50,776 bases of DNA from a virus. Taxonomy: Duplodnaviria; Caudoviricetes. The position numbers were made by a program, and so were the translations under genes. The DNA lies in the IMG/VR virus record IMGVR_UViG_3300046816_000391, positions 1-50,776 of that record; one strand, given 5' to 3'. The notes beneath the pieces are model-generated. The model was given only the letters and a program-made list of their open reading frames with translations. It made no database searches and was not told the DNA's origin. This document shows, piece after piece, positions 936-36,002 of this stretch (position 1 is the stretch's first letter; every line of letters starts with the position of its first letter).

Positions 936-2332
936 CAGTTCGCCGCCGCCTTGTCGACGCGATCTGCGATATCTACATTGGTCGTTGCAAGTATGAGCGT
1001 ACGCCTCACCGGATCGGAGATGGCATATTCATAGACGCGGTCACGAGACCAACCGAGCTGATTCCAGATCGTGCGCGCTGTATATTTTCCGGTCCGTCCA
1101 AGGCTTCGCCAATGTCCATTGGACCAGGTACGACCACCGTCATCTGACCAGCGCAACATGACCTGCGGATCTGATCCTTGGCCCGTGATGAGGCCGACGC
1201 CCTGCTCAAAGATCAGCTCGAGACGAAAGTGCCGTACGCGTTCGCCGTCGTTCGATACCGAGGCCGAGGCAGCGGAGCTGCGCAGGATCTCGTTCCACTC
1301 GGTGAAGATATCCGGGTCGAGCTTGCCGAGCTTGTTGCTGAATTGATCACCGACGAACCATTCGTCATAGGCTCTCAAGACAAAACGAGGTCGCCACTGA
1401 TCATAGCCGCGACTTTTTCGCTCGTGCCATTTACCGGTGGAGATGTCGTAGACGACCGCGCCACTGGATGAAGACAGGCCATAGAATTTATGGCCGCCCT
1501 CGACCCATGTCATTCCATAACAGGTCTTGTTTGGCCAGCCTTCTATGATCTGCTCGATCCAGTGAGTGGAAACTCTCTCTGGTTTATAACCATTCAGCTT
1601 GTAAACGATGCCGTCATGTCCTGGAAAGAAAATGGTGTTGTCGATCTTCCCGGGACCAAATCGTGACAGACAGCCCACCTCAAATATCCCGTTGGGAACG
1701 GCTTCGATTGGAAAGTCGGCATTTCCGGTATCGGTGAAAACTTCACCCGACATCTTGCCAAGCAAGATCAGCTCACCGTGATCCACGATCCCCGAGACGA
1801 TGTCATCCGGATAGCGCTCAGCGCTTGCGAAATCGAGCGCATCCCACGCGGCGGGATTTCGATTCGAACTGATCGCGAAGCGCCCACTGTTGGGAACCCC
1901 GACGATGAAATAGCCATCGAGCGTCTCAACCCAATCCGCGCCCGGGAAATCCTCATCCACGATCCGTGTGACCAGAGTGCCATCCCAGTAGTATCCAAGG
2001 CCTTCAGTGACCAGCATGACGTGCGTTTCATCGCCCGCCATATCCACATAGCCTGTGCCCGGAATAGATCCTAATTCGATGGCGGCGCCAGTTTCTGGAA
2101 TGCGATAGAGCTTCGTTCCCACGACCACATAAGGAACGCCGTTGACCGCAAGACCCCCGCGAACCTTCCCGCTTCCGATCGTGAGATGATCCGCAATCCC
2201 ATAACTCTGAACGATCGCCGCAAAGGTCTTCGCCTGCGCAGGCGCGATCTCCAGATAACAATTAATCATGCGCTGGGCAGAAAGCGACCGCGAACGATGC
2301 TGGTAACTCTCAAGCCCGAAGGACAGCCTCAC
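935..2332 (-). CDS. P22 gp10-like tail hub / packaged DNA stabilization protein
   Basis: 465 aa; GQGSDPQVMLRWSDDGGRTWS and GKY..R.IW.QLG..RDRVYE motifs; follows gp4-like gene. Confidence 0.88.
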   Translation of the reverse strand: MRLSFGLESYQHRSRSLSAQRMINCYLEIAPAQAKTFAAIVQSYGIADHLTIGSGKVRGGLAVNGVPYVVVGTKLYRIPETGAAIELGSIPGTGYVDMAGDETHVMLVTEGLGYYWDGTLVTRIVDEDFPGADWVETLDGYFIVGVPNSGRFAISSNRNPAAWDALDFASAERYPDDIVSGIVDHGELILLGKMSGEVFTDTGNADFPIEAVPNGIFEVGCLSRFGPGKIDNTIFFPGHDGIVYKLNGYKPERVSTHWIEQIIEGWPNKTCYGMTWVEGGHKFYGLSSSSGAVVYDISTGKWHERKSRGYDQWRPRFVLRAYDEWFVGDQFSNKLGKLDPDIFTEWNEILRSSAASASVSNDGERVRHFRLELIFEQGVGLITGQGSDPQVMLRWSDDGGRTWSNGHWRSLGRTGKYTARTIWNQLGWSRDRVYEYAISDPVRRTLILATTNVDIADRVDKAAAN

Positions 2333-22027: not shown

Positions 22028-22056
22028 AATTTAGCCCCGGAATCGCATCAACGCAA
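22028..22056 (-). promoter_or_regulatory. pR'-like late promoter
   Basis: TTGCGT (22056-22051), 17-nt spacer, TAAATT (22033-22028); the -10 equals that of lambda pR'; terminator about 30 nt downstream. Confidence 0.6.
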
Positions 22057-22441
22057 GTAGGTCGCTGTGTTTGCTCTCAATAAATTTCCACTGCAGGAAG
22101 TTCAACGAGATTTGCCACGCAATGGTGAGCGTGCGCTCCGTGAGATTCAGTTGGCTTGCGATGACTGGCTGCGGAAGCTGCGTGCGATACCACTTCACGA
22201 TGATGCGCTTGGTCTTCTCGGGCGACTTCAGGATGATCTGGTCGACCACGATTGCGGTCACGTCATCGAGCGGAGGCGGACGCGAGGCCATTCCGTCCAT
22301 CCAGGTATCGGTGGGTAGTCCGAGCCCGACCGAGACGGCCCAGCGCTGGCAGATTCGATCGGTAGTTGCAAGTTCTGCCGGCATCGCTTGCCGGGTGCGG
22401 CCGAGCCATTCGGCTTTCTGAGCAACCGAGACTGCGTTCAC
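22031..22441 (-). CDS. Putative late antiterminator (Q-like) / sigma-4-type HTH regulator
   Basis: DRICQRWA N-terminus, VDQII...IIVKWY...IASQLNLTERTL HTH; followed by promoter and terminator. Confidence 0.6.
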   Translation of the reverse strand: MNAVSVAQKAEWLGRTRQAMPAELATTDRICQRWAVSVGLGLPTDTWMDGMASRPPPLDDVTAIVVDQIILKSPEKTKRIIVKWYRTQLPQPVIASQLNLTERTLTIAWQISLNFLQWKFIESKHSDLLALMRFRG

Positions 22442-22752
22442 ATCATCCCCTTTTCGTTCTCTATACTGACGATCTGAGTGATTACGCTCACATGAGGGCG
22501 CCGGCGTTTCCGCATCAAAATCTCCATGAGCGCCAAGAACTCCCGTTCGTTGGTAAGCGCTCGGAGTAACGCTTCTTTCGGTACTCTTTCCCCCGTTCTA
22601 CGGATCTTGATCAGGCGCGCCATGACATTGGTGAGGTAGTTGCACGGGATGCCAGTCTCGTGCGAAAGCGTCTTGTAGGCAGGAACCTCGATAACGTGAC
22701 GAGCGACTTCGTCTAGCCGTTCGATGTACTCCTCGACCTGACTGTGTTTCAT
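22438..22752 (-). CDS. Hypothetical protein (possible HTH)
   Basis: YKTLSHETGIPCNYL; coupled to both neighbours. Confidence 0.55.
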   Translation of the reverse strand: MKHSQVEEYIERLDEVARHVIEVPAYKTLSHETGIPCNYLTNVMARLIKIRRTGERVPKEALLRALTNEREFLALMEILMRKRRRPHVSVITQIVSIENEKGMM

Positions 22753-23189
22753 GCAACCTCGACTATTTCGATGCCGTGTTCTGCCCGCAGATGAAGGCGC
22801 TTCCATTTGTAGATTGCGGTCCGGGTGGAGCTGTTCTTCTTCGGGTCCTTCACGTCCTCGTGAATCTTCTTCCCGCTGGCGTGGTCGAGATACTCAAAGT
22901 CGAGTTCGATATAGCCGAGCAGGAGCCCGCAGGCGTGGAGATCGTAACGAGGGTGTATGGAGAGCCCACTGATGGCGCCAGCCTCCTGCATGAGCTTGAG
23001 GTCCATGTACCGTCGAAGTTCAGCCTGTGAGCCGAAGTAGATGCCATCGTGCCATTGCGGTTTCGCGGTGTACTTCGGCTTTGATACGCGCGCGATCATC
23101 GGCACCGAGTGATTGCTGACGGTACCGGATGGGCCGACAGTCCGGGCCTGATACCGCTCTAGGTCTGCCTCTGACCAGCGCAGGCTCAC
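22749..23189 (-). CDS. DUF1064 family PD-(D/E)xK endonuclease (putative resolvase)
   Basis: KY.AK...DGIYFGSQAE.RRY..LK...AGAISGL..HPRYDL...Y.LDFEY...EDVK. Confidence 0.8.
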   Translation of the reverse strand: MSLRWSEADLERYQARTVGPSGTVSNHSVPMIARVSKPKYTAKPQWHDGIYFGSQAELRRYMDLKLMQEAGAISGLSIHPRYDLHACGLLLGYIELDFEYLDHASGKKIHEDVKDPKKNSSTRTAIYKWKRLHLRAEHGIEIVEVA

Positions 23190-23377: not shown

Positions 23378-23532
23378 AAAGGCCCCTCCGGAACGGTGTC
23401 TTTCTGGTCTGGTTTATTTTCAAGGCGGTCGATCTCATGTCGAGCCGCTTCGCAAACGGCCGCCCAACCGTCTTTCCCTGCCGCTCGCAGCGTCTTCTCG
23501 AGGAGTTCAAGCCGTTTGGCGTGAGGATTCAC
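23374..23532 (-). CDS. Hypothetical 52-aa protein (MNPHAKRLELLEK...)
   Basis: Read by eye; fills the gap with GTGA overlaps on both sides. Confidence 0.55.
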   Translation of the reverse strand: MNPHAKRLELLEKTLRAAGKDGWAAVCEAARHEIDRLENKPDQKDTVPEGPL

Positions 23533-23903
23533 TGAGCTGCCTCGCAAAGCTGTTTAGCTTCATCACTTGTTCGGCAGCAGCCGAGTGGCTCAGGCATTTC
23601 CTTGTAGCGTTTCCCGTTCGCGAACATGTCGGGGTGGCGGCGCCACGCGGAATACGTGAACCCAAGTTCATGGGCGTCCTTTGAGACCGTAAACCGCCCA
23701 CACGCTGTTAGGAGGTAGCCGGAACCGAGAGGGCCGTGCGAGCTCGTCCACACCGGCGGGTTCCATTGGAGACTTACTTTCGCCTTCGGCGACTGCGCTG
23801 CGTTTGAGACTTGAGCTTGAGGCTTCGTGTTTCTGGCCAACTTCTCCCACATGTCCTCCTGAGTAACGTGCTTCTGCGGCTCGTGCAGCGGGCTGTAGGG
23901 CAT
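23529..23903 (-). CDS. Hypothetical protein
   Basis: ACGRFTVSK...YSAWRR...LG...TSDEAKQLCE phage-type small domain. Confidence 0.65.
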   Translation of the reverse strand: MPYSPLHEPQKHVTQEDMWEKLARNTKPQAQVSNAAQSPKAKVSLQWNPPVWTSSHGPLGSGYLLTACGRFTVSKDAHELGFTYSAWRRHPDMFANGKRYKEMPEPLGCCRTSDEAKQLCEAAQ

Positions 23904-23904
23904 T

Positions 23905-24365
23905 ACCCGGCCCACGACTTGCTACACCATACTGTATTAGCGATGTGATACACTAACTTCGTGCAGAACGTCATGGAAAAGCTCACCACTCTGTTGCTCG
24001 AGCACCCGGAGCGCTTTACGGCTAGCGAAATACCCTGCTGCCTTCTCGGTATCTGGGAGTCAGCTCTGGAGCTGTTACCTGACCCTGTATCCGTACCCCT
24101 GAGTGGCAGGCAGAATGAACCCCAGCCCCGAAACATTCGGAGTCTGGAGTTCACCTGACCCTCGTAGAGCCGCATGGCCCGTCGAGCAGGAACAGTCACA
24201 GCAGCGGTCTGTTTCCGGGTTCACTTTCGAGAGGACTTGCTCTCTCGTCAGCTCGGGCCACCCGTTTCACTCGGCCCTATCGCGTGCGCTGAAGCCCACC
24301 AGTGGCGATTGATGAAGTGGTGCGCGCTGATGTCTTGGTAACCGTCCGCGCACCGCTGGAGTTCT
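23905..24365 (-). ncRNA. Putative structured non-coding RNA / replication origin element
   Basis: No convincing ORF; several helices whose mismatches become G-U pairs on the minus strand. Confidence 0.5.
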
Positions 24366-24366
24366 G

Positions 24367-24678
24367 TTAGCTGGGTGCCGGTCTCCCGGATAAGTCCTCG
24401 ATATCAACCTGAGTGACACCAGGAACGCGCACATAGCGCCGAGGTCCGCCGTCGTACGTGAGTTCGAGACCGCGGAACCAAAGCTCCCGATCGTTCACCG
24501 CATCGACACCGTGCGCGTGGGCCGCCCTCGGCCAGCGCTTGAGGATGTCGTAGTCGTTACGGGTGAGCGTGAGGTGTTGCTGATTCGGTTTGAACTTTCG
24601 CGTCCACTCAGCCAACGGGCCGACACGCTTCATGATGTCTTCAATGAGGCGGTAGCCCTGCGAGACACGGTCAGCCAT
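24367..24678 (-). CDS. Hypothetical protein
   Basis: GGAGG RBS; part of the cro operon. Confidence 0.65.
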   Translation of the reverse strand: MADRVSQGYRLIEDIMKRVGPLAEWTRKFKPNQQHLTLTRNDYDILKRWPRAAHAHGVDAVNDRELWFRGLELTYDGGPRRYVRVPGVTQVDIEDLSGRPAPS

Positions 24679-24904
24679 CGCGCGCCTCCGTAAGTCGCAA
24701 CGTCCCGTTCCATCGGGCTGAAGGCGTTAGCTTTCGCAGGCGACGCACATATGTGAATTCAGGTGCTCGTGGAGCACGCTGTCTCGGAATCTGGGGGCCA
24801 CCGATCACCCGCATGCGCTTTGCCCAGCCGCGGCAGTGCTTGCAGCCAGACATGTGAAGTTCATGTATTTCGCAGGGCCGGTGATACTTGCGCGGGGCCG
24901 GCAT
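24671..24904 (-). CDS. Hypothetical basic protein (C-x2-H-x5-C-x2-C)
   Basis: Coupled to cro stop (TGATG). Confidence 0.5.
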   Translation of the reverse strand: MPAPRKYHRPCEIHELHMSGCKHCRGWAKRMRVIGGPQIPRQRAPRAPEFTYVRRLRKLTPSARWNGTLRLTEARDG

Positions 24905-25152
24905 CAGTTCGCTCGCGGTTCAGCACGCTCACGAAACCGTTTCGCCGCTTGATATTCGTTGAGAAACGCGAATAGTTTCTCGAGTCGCTTCACGCCCGGG
25001 TCGTCAATGCCGCCATAAACAATCTTGCGGACCCACTCGTGGCCGACCTCGGCGCCCTCTGCGATCTGTCGCAAAGTTAAATCACCGCGTTGATCCAGCA
25101 GCTTTTTTGTCTTTGCCAGGAGGGATTCTGTCGCATCGCGCTTTTCATCCAT
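24904..25152 (-). CDS. cro: Cro-like HTH repressor
   Basis: LTLRQIAEGAEVGHEWVRKIVYGGIDDPGVKRLEKL; divergent from the repressor gene. Confidence 0.8.
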   Translation of the reverse strand: MDEKRDATESLLAKTKKLLDQRGDLTLRQIAEGAEVGHEWVRKIVYGGIDDPGVKRLEKLFAFLNEYQAAKRFRERAEPRAN

Positions 25153-25159
25153 GAACCAA

Positions 25160-25189
25160 AGTGTAGTTTATGACACAGCATGAGTGCAA
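25160..25189 (-). promoter_or_regulatory. pR-like promoter overlapped by operator GTGTAGTTTATGACAC (25161-25176)
   Basis: TTGCAC-N18-TACACT ending 7 nt before cro ATG; operator matches two copies at 25676 and 25706. Confidence 0.6.
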
Positions 25190-25626
25190 CCACAAACACA
25201 CCACTTCCCTTACCGTACGGGGGAATGCGTAGCGAGATACACAGCAAGGACCCCAAAACGATCTTGGGGCGAAACTTGAGCGCCGCCTTTAAGAAGCGCG
25301 GGCTCAGTGCGCGTTCTGTTGCGCGCTCGTTAGCTGCCTCCGGCATGAAAATATCGAACAAGACCGTGAGCAACATGCTCAACGGTGAAGGTAACCCGCA
25401 GCTCGACAATCTACTTGCCGTCGCGAAACAGGCTCGTGTCCCCCTCTGGCAATTACTGAGCCCAGTAATGGATTTATCTCACCTCGGTAAGGAAGATTTG
25501 CACGAACTCATTGAGGGAGTTGCTGGGCTGTCAGAGATCGGACTTAGCCAAGTGCGCCGCGTCATCCAGGGCGAGCACGCCATCAATAAGCTCGCTGAAG
25601 CCCAATCGGCACGTTCCGATCGATAG
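25180..25626 (+). CDS. CI-like XRE-family repressor (start 25180 or 25225)
   Basis: LSARSVAR...ISNKTVSNMLNGEGNPQLDNLLAVAK...PLWQLL HTH; no peptidase domain. Confidence 0.8.
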   Translation: MSATTNTPLPLPYGGMRSEIHSKDPKTILGRNLSAAFKKRGLSARSVARSLAASGMKISNKTVSNMLNGEGNPQLDNLLAVAKQARVPLWQLLSPVMDLSHLGKEDLHELIEGVAGLSEIGLSQVRRVIQGEHAINKLAEAQSARSDR

Positions 25627-32009: not shown

Positions 32010-32179
32010 CCGAAGCGGACCCCATGCCCGAGCTGTGCCACCACGACGATTCTTCGTGGTGTAACGAGGAATGCGAAGAGAAGGCGCGCAAGTTTGATGA
32101 GTGGATCAAGCGCGAAGTGCAGCGGACCGGCGATATCGCGACGATCTTGGAAATCACTGGAGGGAATCGAAAGTGTTGA
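32006..32179 (+). CDS. Hypothetical 57-aa protein
   Basis: Read by eye; ATGA overlap. Confidence 0.5.
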
Positions 32180-32373
32180 TACTTACCCGCAAAACTGGCG
32201 AAGAAATCGACATCACGCTGGAGGACGGCCGGCGCATCACCATCACGCAGCTCGGCGTAAAGGGCAACCAAGTGCGTTATGGAGTTTCTGCGCCAAAGAC
32301 CGTCATCGTAGACCGTCACGAGATAACGGAGCGGAAGTGGGATGAGCAACACCCGGGGAATGGCAATGTCTGA
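32173..32373 (+). CDS. csrA: Carbon storage regulator CsrA/RsmA homolog
   Basis: GGAGG RBS, GTG start; [12 protein letters not shown]...[21 protein letters not shown]. Confidence 0.92.
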
Positions 32374-34569: not shown

Positions 34570-35312
34570 TCAACGTGTACCGAGCGACCGGCATGGACAA
34601 TCTGCGCACGAGCACACAGGCCCGCTATGGGCTGATGCTCACGCGCCTGGATCATCACTTCGGGAAAATGCGGATCGGTGCGCTGAAGCCGAGCCACGTC
34701 GCCGTGTTCCTCGAGAAGCGACGCAAGGCAGGACGCGGGGCAACGGCGGCGAACAGGGAGTTTGCCGTCCTGTCCTCCGTCCACAACTTCGGCATGCGTC
34801 AGGGCTGGCTTGAGACGAACCCCTGCAACGGAATACGCCGCAATCCCGAGAAGCCCCGCAAGCGTTACGTGACAAACGCCGAGTTCTTAGAGGCTTTCGA
34901 CAAGAGCCCCGAGCCGTTCCAGGACCTCATCGCGTTCGCCTATCTGACGGGCATCCGCCAGACCGATGTCATGAACCTTAAGCGCGCCGAGCACCTGAAG
35001 CCCGAGGGGATCGAGTGGGTGGAGAGCAAGACCGGCAAGCTGCACAAGCAGGAATGGTCCGATGCCGTGCGCTTCTTCGTACGTCGCGCGATGGAGCGCT
35101 TCCCCGAAGCCGAATACGTGTTCACCAACCGCTTTGGCCAGCAGTGGGGCGTCTGGGCGATCAACAGCCAGATAGCCAGGCTGGGAAGAGCGTGGTCGTT
35201 CAAGGACCTTCGTGCGAAGTCCCAGAGCGACGCTGAGCACTCGGTCCTAGGCCACGATGCCGCGATGGAGCGGCTCTATCGCAAGGTCATCAAGACGAGG
35301 CCGGTGCGATGA
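34392..35312 (+). CDS. int: Tyrosine recombinase / integrase
   Basis: ANREFAVLS...TNPC...RKRYVT; AYLTGIRQTD (R), SKTG (K), FKDLRAK (K replaces H in HxxR), LGH, LY (Y). Confidence 0.92.
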   Translation: MSQLSCGLSIPGVVEKDGRYYKIIRNKWHPLSRIDEGQNALYRALYELDPARPGTIGELINVYRATGMDNLRTSTQARYGLMLTRLDHHFGKMRIGALKPSHVAVFLEKRRKAGRGATAANREFAVLSSVHNFGMRQGWLETNPCNGIRRNPEKPRKRYVTNAEFLEAFDKSPEPFQDLIAFAYLTGIRQTDVMNLKRAEHLKPEGIEWVESKTGKLHKQEWSDAVRFFVRRAMERFPEAEYVFTNRFGQQWGVWAINSQIARLGRAWSFKDLRAKSQSDAEHSVLGHDAAMERLYRKVIKTRPVR

Positions 35313-35313
35313 A

Positions 35314-35498
35314 TCTTAGAGGCTACGGCGTGTTTCTTAGAGGGAAAGTGGTGGGCCGTGAAGGAGTCGAACCTTCGACCAAGAGATTAAGAGTCGGTCG
35401 CCTTTATACTGGATTCACGCAGAAAACAGCGTTATTCCCTCTAAGCATGGCAGCGACGATGGGCTGTTTTTCGGCCTCATTTGCGGGGGACCTTAGAG
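35314..35498. repeat. Putative integrase arm-type sites (CTTAGAG)
   Basis: TCTTAGAGG at 35314 and 35335, inverted CCTCTAAG at 35438, CTTAGAG at 35492, plus TCTTAGAGG at 34885 inside int. Confidence 0.7.
35349..35395 (-). mobile_element. attP: attP core: 3' half of tRNA-Lys(CTT)
   Basis: Minus strand GACTCTTAATCTCTTGGTCGAAGGTTCGACTCCTTCACGGCCCACCA gives anticodon loop CTT, T-arm and CCA; no 5' half; 36 bp after int. Confidence 0.9.
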
Positions 35499-35591
35499 AC
35501 TTTCCGAACTACCTCGCCGACAGAATGAGGCGCTGTCCGAAAAACGGTAGAGCGTTGATATCTGCCATCGATCCGCGTAATAAGCTACTTG

Positions 35592-36002
35592 ATGGAAGCC
35601 TTCGAAGACGTCGCTCTACGCGCACGTATGCGCTATTTAGCGCTCCGCAAACAGCCGGCTCGGCAAATCTACGTGATGCCGGCACGCGAATATCTGAAGA
35701 TCGGTATGGCGATCGATCCGGCCGCCAGATGGCGAACGCTGAGCAGCGCAAACCCATTCATCGAACTGCCGATTTATGTGAGCCGCAGCATGGCTTCCGC
35801 CCGCATGGCGGAACGAGAAATCCACCGAAGGCTCCGTCAGTACCAGGTGCTGAGCGCCATCGCAGGACGAGAGTGGTTCAGTTGCAGTCGTCAGCTCGCG
35901 ATAGAAATCGCTACACAAGTAACGGACGAATGGGCCACGTGGGAGCAGCAAGATGATCGATCTGATTACGGTACCGCGATTCTGCGCGCTCACCGGCTAT
36001 AG
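35592..36002 (+). CDS. GIY-YIG (T5orf172/MUG113-like) nuclease
   Basis: IYVM...LKIG...DP..R...L...NP...EREIH..L...GREWF. Confidence 0.8.
   Translation: MEAFEDVALRARMRYLALRKQPARQIYVMPAREYLKIGMAIDPAARWRTLSSANPFIELPIYVSRSMASARMAEREIHRRLRQYQVLSAIAGREWFSCSRQLAIEIATQVTDEWATWEQQDDRSDYGTAILRAHRL

Follow-up and report, generated by a model that had tools for sequence, protein, structure and literature searches.

A candidate family of 281-nt structured RNAs downstream of cro in uncultured phages

The IMG/VR virus record IMGVR_UViG_3300046816_000391, analysed here over its whole length of 50,776 bp (the window), carries just after its cro-like gene, and on the strand of that gene, an element of 281 nt that very probably belongs to a genuine family of structured RNAs. 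As judged from aligned sequences, this family would be a new and small one, with five members, all of them residing in metagenomic phage sequences. The RNA is probably an accessory, regulatory component of the early transcript issuing from the cro side. The window represents a complete temperate phage genome, its completeness having been supposed in the original prediction (a model-made reading of the letters of this DNA): the record possesses a 127-bp direct terminal repeat and is rated 100% complete. The same prediction regarded a gap of ~460 nt in the early region as non-coding throughout and proposed that it harbors either an initiator-independent, RNA-primed replication origin or a large noncoding RNA of a new class.

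The evidence for the RNA family is derived mainly from an alignment of the five members, whose pairwise nucleotide identity is 68–81%. The RNAalifold consensus comprises 80 pairs arranged in 10 helices, and 22 of these pairs display compensatory changes on both sides. Column shuffles yield 8.4±2.0 doubly changed pairs and reached 22 in none of 500 cases; sliding the pairing partners by 1–3 columns leaves 1–7 such pairs. On the consensus structure, 93.4% of the 395 cells are paired. The covariance model R1, built from the same five sequences (276 positions, 79 pairs), finds exactly one copy in each of them. No open frame extends across all five copies, and the indels separating them are mostly of 1–2 nt. 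At gathering thresholds, Rfam contains no family matching the window. Hence, the second proposal of the original prediction, a new large class of noncoding RNA, is supported by the compensatory changes in five sequences and by the lack of an Rfam family at the gathering score; the covariation analysis and the Rfam comparison, both of which it had named as checks, came out in the same sense (22 of 80 pairs doubly changed, no family at threshold).

The minus strand is the structured one, because it pairs 93.3% of the cells, while the opposite strand would pair only 81.3%; G-U pairs account for 54 of 390 cells. The strand-specific folding read from the letters alone is thereby upheld. Folding of the single sequence is only modestly better than expected by chance: z is -1.83 for the minus strand, 6 of 100 shuffles being equally good, and -0.60 for the plus strand (22 of 100). 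The real support is comparative. One part of the fold differs between two models: the long-range helix of the first model (alignment columns 90–96 with 261–268) shows no covariation, and with the trimmed alignment RNAalifold swaps it for a local hairpin, GGGCCG/GGCCC.

Within the element (Table 1), the core at 24215–24278 is unchanged in all five sequences save two letters, and the long hairpin (helix 9) has four pairs changed on both sides and 92.9% of its cells paired. The inverted repeats noticed originally are present, three of them within helices of the consensus structure (24317–24356, 24255–24277 and the long hairpin 24108–24160). The predicted direct repeat is likewise confirmed: ACCTGACCCT matches the window at two sites only, 24077 and 24153, where 0.05 matches would be expected by chance, and none of 100 shuffled sequences contained two. 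Four of the five sequences bear GUCAGG at both repeat sites; the 3′ site of L008 reads AUCAGG, leaving UCAGG common to all five. The CAGCTC/GAGCTG pair (~24062–24075) does exist as described, but it falls beyond the limits of the conserved element, and the relatives have not retained it. On the other side of the element, letters resembling GCACCCAGCUAR in the 5′ flank are common to the window, L003, L006 and L007, though the upstream gene differs between the loci.

Table 1. Coordinates of the structured RNA element, its parts and the adjoining features in the window.
Feature	Coordinates	Strand	Description
Structured RNA element (putative)	24076..24356	-	281 nt, ~79 consensus pairs, 10 helices; covariance model R1, 267 bits, model positions 1-276
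5′ hairpin	24317..24356	-	10 pairs; conserved loop letters GGNCGG ... AC..CAGC; 7 of 10 pairs change on both sides (5 sequences)
Second hairpin	24279..24309	-	helices of 5 (outer) and 4 (inner) pairs; CUGG.GGG in the loop; lines up with hairpin 2 of RF02932
Near-invariant core	24215..24278	-	GGGCCGAGUGAAAC..GUGGCCC, then GAGCUGAC, then covarying hairpin 24223-24252 (helix 6)
Long hairpin	24108..24160	-	23 pairs, conserved G-U pairs, one GGGUCAGG motif at each flank
3′ copy of repeat motif	24077..24086	-	AGGGUCAGGU on the RNA strand; 5′ copy at 24153-24162
Conserved 5′ flank	24357..24380	-	stop codon of the preceding gene lies within it
Small protein gene, 61 aa	23973..24158	+	runs toward the RNA, sharing 83 nt with its 3′ end
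Divergent spacer, 69 nt	23904..23972		between the small plus-strand gene and the 124-aa gene; carries TGATACACT (23946-23954), plus strand, an extended -10-like word
124-aa protein	23529..23903	-	next gene downstream on the RNA strand; AlphaFold2 model pLDDT (predicted local distance difference test) 74
103-aa protein	24367..24678	-	immediately upstream of the RNA; AlphaFold2 model pLDDT 80; 16 relatives besides the window's own protein

The relatives of the element were recovered in two ways. A profile of the homologues of the upstream protein of 103 amino acids (aa) led to the 6-kb metagenome contig L003, in which ~300 nt located 3′ of the homologous gene align to the minus strand of the window with visibly compensating changes. 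A 23-letter pattern taken from the invariant core retrieves three IMG/VR records (loci L006, L007 and L008 in G002, G003 and G004, respectively), and a pattern search with the 3′ domain returned the same three viral loci only. The sole exact match of the 23-letter core in 185,579 species genomes, L009, has flanks that do not align; it was considered a chance match and left out of all counts. In the large collections, members were sought by exact patterns. No match was obtained with blastn in distant mode (positions 23500–24700 against 50,697 GenBank phage records) or with profile A1 in the viral and genome collections. Searches for related loci with single flanking proteins returned nothing, and those with the resolvase only L002, which bears no element. 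In the literature searched, no published description of the element was found.

In all loci, the element shares its strand with cro, from which it is separated by at most two small genes. In G003, 178 nt separate the cro-like gene from the start of the element; in G002, the preceding gene encodes a homologue of the 77-aa protein of the window, and in the window and L003 this place is taken by the 103-aa gene. On the 3′ side, a small antisense gene is encountered and, in four of the five loci, a 124-aa homologue, the resolvase being the next gene in L003, G002 and the window. In G003 and G004, tail-fibre-like genes (Laminin_G_3/PASTA; a weak polysaccharide-lyase-like match below the Pfam cut-off) come directly afterwards in the operon. 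In G004 (L010, ~1613–1650, minus strand), the RNA is immediately preceded by a GC-rich hairpin with a T-poor tail, which itself follows a small gene judged helix-turn-helix (HTH)-like by eye. Two further loci have the neighbors of the element without the element itself. One of them, L024 in the complete record G155, displays a P22_Cro gene, genes of 131 and 73 aa, the small antisense gene and a 124-aa homologue, with the terminase within 3 kb; the RNA was absent from it even with the search filters off. The other, L004, possesses a 103-aa homologue (48% identical) and no RNA element. The RNA can therefore be regarded as a separable accessory module, since it is absent from G155 and L004, which share its flanking genes.

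Among the known RNAs, only RF02932 (Betaproteobacteria-1), a candidate small RNA (sRNA) of unknown function typed as an sRNA gene, appears in a permissive Rfam search; three of the five members show it, with position and strand in agreement. Its scores (21.4 bits in the window, 24.8 in L007 and 21.8 in G004) are all under half of the gathering score of 49.4, with E-values of 0.071 and 0.46 for the alignments, and L003 and L006 gave no match at E <= 10. Membership in RF02932 thus fails the family's own threshold. A distant kinship of the 5′ third of the element with this family seems plausible, if tentative, because two 5′ hairpins (24317–24356 is the part aligned to hairpin 1) occur in the same order and the loop letters of the family, GG.CGG, AC..CAGC, CUG.GGG and then GG ... 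GGGU, are matched. The RF02932 model has 120 positions, whereas the element has 276 and a further 3′ domain of ~180 nt. The three matches are not independent, since they are homologous to one another, and chance RF02932 matches of 26–29 bits occur in 151 genomes from the phylum of G001. The two matches obtained there, below the threshold, were dismissed because by eye they look like coding DNA and do not resemble the element; neither these 151 genomes nor two phages yielded a true RF02932 member. The known diversity-generating retroelement (DGR) RNA of BPP-1 was recovered as a positive control. The motifs of the set to which RF02932 belongs were introduced in PMC5737381, the available main text of which does not name Betaproteobacteria-1. 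GOLLD and ROOL, described in the available part of the same source, are also prophage-carried structured RNAs of unknown function found through covariation. They are, however, large RNAs often situated near tRNA genes, whereas the element has 281 nt and lies in an immunity-proximal early operon, no tRNA being found anywhere in the window; no Rfam match to GOLLD or ROOL was obtained.

Most likely, the early transcript from the cro-side promoter includes the RNA, since no promoter-like or terminator-like site flanks the element (on the minus strand, a consensus scan of 24357–25152 found no sigma-70-like site). Transcribed together with the early genes, it would act as RNA, and the reading ranked first, on a tentative footing, is that of a cis-acting transcription-control element. 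A nut/put-type or anti-Rho element just after cro would govern whether transcription continues into the genes beyond it, namely those of the 124-aa protein, the resolvase and a possible late regulator (22031–22441) with a strong terminator behind it, and then into ~20 kb of late genes. Such a role is ranked first because of the place after cro, the lack of a recognised N protein (none in PHROGs and Pfam scans), the strong intrinsic terminators downstream on the same strand (21999–21977 and 21265–21245) and the replacement of the RNA by two small genes in G155, where the same position holds the genes of 131 and 73 aa. By analogy, this exchange would be a module swap like that of N plus nut versus put; PMC12315714 draws the same inference for an N-less lambdoid phage. 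The putL and putR RNAs of HK022 offer a parallel, i.e., an RNA on the early transcript just 3′ of cro, in a phage without a recognised N protein, which would act without a phage protein. A put RNA has two stem-loops in roughly 70 nt, and each early operon bears one copy (two in all), whereas the element has 281 nt and ~10 helices and is present as a single copy in the window, G002, G003 and G004; its place after cro fits.

Several points weigh against a cis role of this kind. The element has about four times the length of put RNAs as commonly described, and a second copy was not found in the cI-side operon or anywhere in G000, G002, G003 and G004. There is no intrinsic terminator between the RNA and position 22031, so no need for antitermination is shown there; in G004, the terminator-like hairpin, as read by eye, immediately precedes the RNA instead of following it. 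The invariant loops and the size of 280 nt might fit a trans-acting ribonucleoprotein (RNP) or ribozyme at least as well, and with five sequences the invariance of the loops is weak evidence in itself. Finally, the public sequencing runs listed for the locus are three soil DNA runs, one of them its likely source, with no RNA run among them.

Almost equally likely, and hence a possible close second to the cis reading, is an RNA acting in trans. A stable noncoding RNA, cut from the early transcript (e.g., by RNase III at the 23-bp hairpin), would then bind a protein or an RNA of the host or the phage and serve as a sponge, decoy, anti-defence RNA, ribozyme or RNP. The complex fold with near-invariant loops and junctions and covarying stems is in line with this, as are the accessory distribution (five loci with the element, and G155 and L004 without it in spite of the shared flanking genes) and the typing of the best Rfam match as an sRNA gene; DicF, processed from an operon of a prophage immunity region, is a precedent. 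A promoter or terminator of its own, however, was not found for the element. The cI-side operon encodes a CsrA homologue (32101–32373, plus strand; Pfam CsrA 3.7e-14, NCBIfam 4.9e-15; LILTRK...VRYGVSAP...VDRHEI). A CsrA-sponge role was considered and rejected, as the alignment shows that GGA motifs are not conserved in the RNA loops. A riboswitch-like cis sensor, adjusting the expression of the downstream genes to a ligand or to temperature, is unlikely. Its multi-helix junction with invariant joining letters and its location inside an operon, 5′ of same-strand genes, would suit such a sensor, but neither a terminator nor a start-site-sequestering helix was found, no riboswitch family matches at E <= 10, and the next same-strand gene begins 172 nt beyond the element, with an opposite-strand gene filling the interval.

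The proposal of a replication origin was associated with the apparent lack of replication genes, which is real as far as recognisable families are concerned. Pfam scans of 75 open reading frames (ORFs) of the window, PHROGs scans of 40 and NCBIfam scans of 65 revealed no replication family (one Pfam output represents the best 25 of 29 families, and the NCBIfam output the best 25 of 28). Six-frame searches of five records, three of them complete genomes, with Phage_rep_O (PF04492), DnaB_C (PF03796), Prim-Pol (PF09250), DNA_pol_A (PF00476), IstB_IS21 (PF01695), SSB (PF00436) and rve (PF00665) gave no match in any record; the complete genomes G000, G004 and G155 are thus all without a match to the seven families. 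This absence is unusual, because BPP-1, which has the same genome plan, carries a primase, a polymerase and a helicase, and because each of the 314 enterobacterial lambdoid phages surveyed in PMC12315714 is reported to have at least an O homologue. No iteron array of at least three copies was found in 20000–41000, and the GC skew tracks the direction of transcription and gives no origin signal. A Walker-A-like word is present in 2 of 73 ORFs and is weak. Sequence searches of the PDB with six proteins or profiles returned nothing credible, the Atlas look-alikes of a 316-aa and a 249-aa protein (scores 0.83–0.84) belong to unnamed clusters only, and the homologues of the latter have neither names nor Pfam families. 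About half of the ORFs have no family match.

That one of the flanking ORFs might turn out to be a replication initiator had been foreseen in the original prediction as a case that would speak against it. This was not what the predicted structures indicated: at E <= 0.001, the model of the 103-aa protein has no fold match in the PDB, and that of the 124-aa protein none in the PDB or in BFVD, i.e., among solved or viral folds. The only early genes common to G000, G004 and G155 are those of the 124-aa family and the small antisense protein. An unrecognised initiator may be hidden among these two. Overall, three complete genomes without the seven replication families imply either an initiator family of unknown kind or an unusual replication strategy.

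An RNA-primed origin of the ColE1 or R-loop type, relying on host proteins only, is nevertheless an improbable explanation of the element. The absence of a recognised replication family from the window and of an iteron array elsewhere in 20000–41000 would accord with it, the more so as the lack of these genes is unusual against BPP-1 and the 314 lambdoid phages of PMC12315714. The element also resembles ColE1 RNA II/RNA I in being a long folded transcript met by convergent transcription from the other strand. Yet, in the present case no promoter of its own was found, and the antisense gene covers the 3′ end and encodes a conserved protein. No short antisense RNA was found over the 5′ part, the sole conserved unit on the opposite strand being the protein gene over the 3′ 83 nt, and Rfam gave no match to RNAI or other plasmid replication RNAs. 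The RNA is not linked to the missing replication genes, because the complete, RNA-less G155 lacks the same seven families. The location of the element in a slot for O, P and ori, on which the original prediction relied, is a weak expectation as well: no dedicated replication slot exists, because G003, G004 and G155 pass straight from the module to tail-fibre-like or terminase genes within a few kb. With about half of the ORFs devoid of a family match, an unrecognised initiator is simpler. The independence from the missing genes, the lack of a promoter, terminator, iterons and 5′ antisense partner, and the partly coding nature of the gap thus tell against the initiator-independent origin as it was proposed. 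It is very doubtful that, in some members of this clade of soil temperate podoviruses, the host replisome is brought in by the element, whether acting as a primer RNA, an R-loop or a signal for single-strand initiation; if true, this would represent a protein-independent phage origin of a new kind.

The least probable of the explanations is that the structure acts as single-stranded DNA (ssDNA), e.g., as a single-strand initiation or primosome-assembly signal or a recombination site, and not as RNA. Strand-specific hairpins with G-T wobbles are possible in ssDNA, too, no phage primase or helicase was recognised, and the available part of PMC5737381 notes that such motifs may act as ssDNA and may serve plasmid replication. 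On the other hand, 54 of the 390 cells are G-U, which is less stable as G-T, the element is on the transcribed strand of an operon, and there is no nickase or rolling-circle Rep, the 75 ORFs being free of Pfam replication families.

As to the neighborhood of the RNA, the gap thought to be wholly non-coding is in part occupied by a gene: 23973–24158 of the plus strand is a real conserved protein gene, and the RNA takes up only 24076–24356. Each of the six loci examined, including two in which the gene lies away from the RNA and the RNA-less L024, preserves the first ~35 residues of the 61-aa product (N-terminal motif M..LL.LLL.(H)P....(I)PC.L), whereas the C-terminal tail is not conserved. Within the first 35 codons, the window and L007 differ at 20 third positions against 9 and 6 at the others; the other two pairwise comparisons among the window, L007 and L008 give 19 versus 11 and 7 and 19 versus 11 and 5. 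Protein-coding conservation, which the original prediction had put forward as evidence against itself, is therefore found in the 61-aa gene but not across the RNA, where no frame is open in the five copies. In the spacer 23904–23972, a consensus scan revealed no promoter; the word GTGATACACT is common to the window and L003 only (two of six loci), and we infer a possible promoter role for the extended -10-like word.

The 124-aa homologues lie downstream of the RNA in G002, G003 and G004 and are encountered in the RNA-less G155 as well. Compared with PDB sequences, the family profile (A8) collects more than 1,000 antibody heavy-chain variable (VH) chains via a short LEW...GRF(S/T)IS(K/R)D stretch, which was judged a compositional coincidence. 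Between cro and the 103-aa gene, a very basic 77-aa protein (24671–24904, minus strand) with a CxxH...CxxC-like pattern is encoded, the homologue of which is directly upstream of the RNA in G002. It is a candidate RNA-binding or DNA-binding partner. Further downstream, the 136-aa gene 22031–22441 has a weak HTH_23 match and is followed by two strong intrinsic-terminator-like hairpins (21999–21977 and 21265–21245, minus strand); the gene and the hairpins resemble a late regulator with its terminator.

The genome is organized around a divergent pair of a cI-like gene (25180–25626, plus strand) and a cro-like gene (24904–25152, minus strand). The operon on the cI side (plus strand) comprises DUF7448, Erf, NinB, an HNH endonuclease, the CsrA homologue and a tyrosine integrase. 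From cro onward, the minus strand bears a DUF1064/Holliday-junction-resolvase-like gene (22749–23189), followed by the large terminase, portal and P22-type connector, and the head genes of the window are P22/Mu-like. In the large terminase subunit (TerL), the closest isolates are a Caudoviricetes record from an uncultured source, with 48% identity, and, as the nearest one with a named host, an Alcaligenes phage with 43%. Among 65 ORFs of the window (head module; the exact ORFs were not mapped), there are matches to Cpn10/GroES, a GNAT acetyltransferase and an Asp/Arg beta-hydroxylase as well as to a RecA-dependent nuclease, glycoside hydrolase 19 and a Mu gpT-like head protein; the set of GroES, GNAT and gpT is also present in the Alcaligenes phage. 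The 215-aa ORF 35309–35956 (plus strand), directly 3′ of the integrase gene, is Arg-rich, of low complexity and without a family match. Possibly this ORF is no true gene, and attP could be located here.

Overall, the element represents a well-supported new RNA of ~280 nt at a regulatory hot spot, just after cro, in soil phages that have never been cultured. If the cis reading holds and the element governs read-through into the late genes, it would be the second RNA-only antitermination device after put, and a much larger one. The element is perhaps an extended relative of an orphan Rfam motif, in which case settling the function of one could explain the other.
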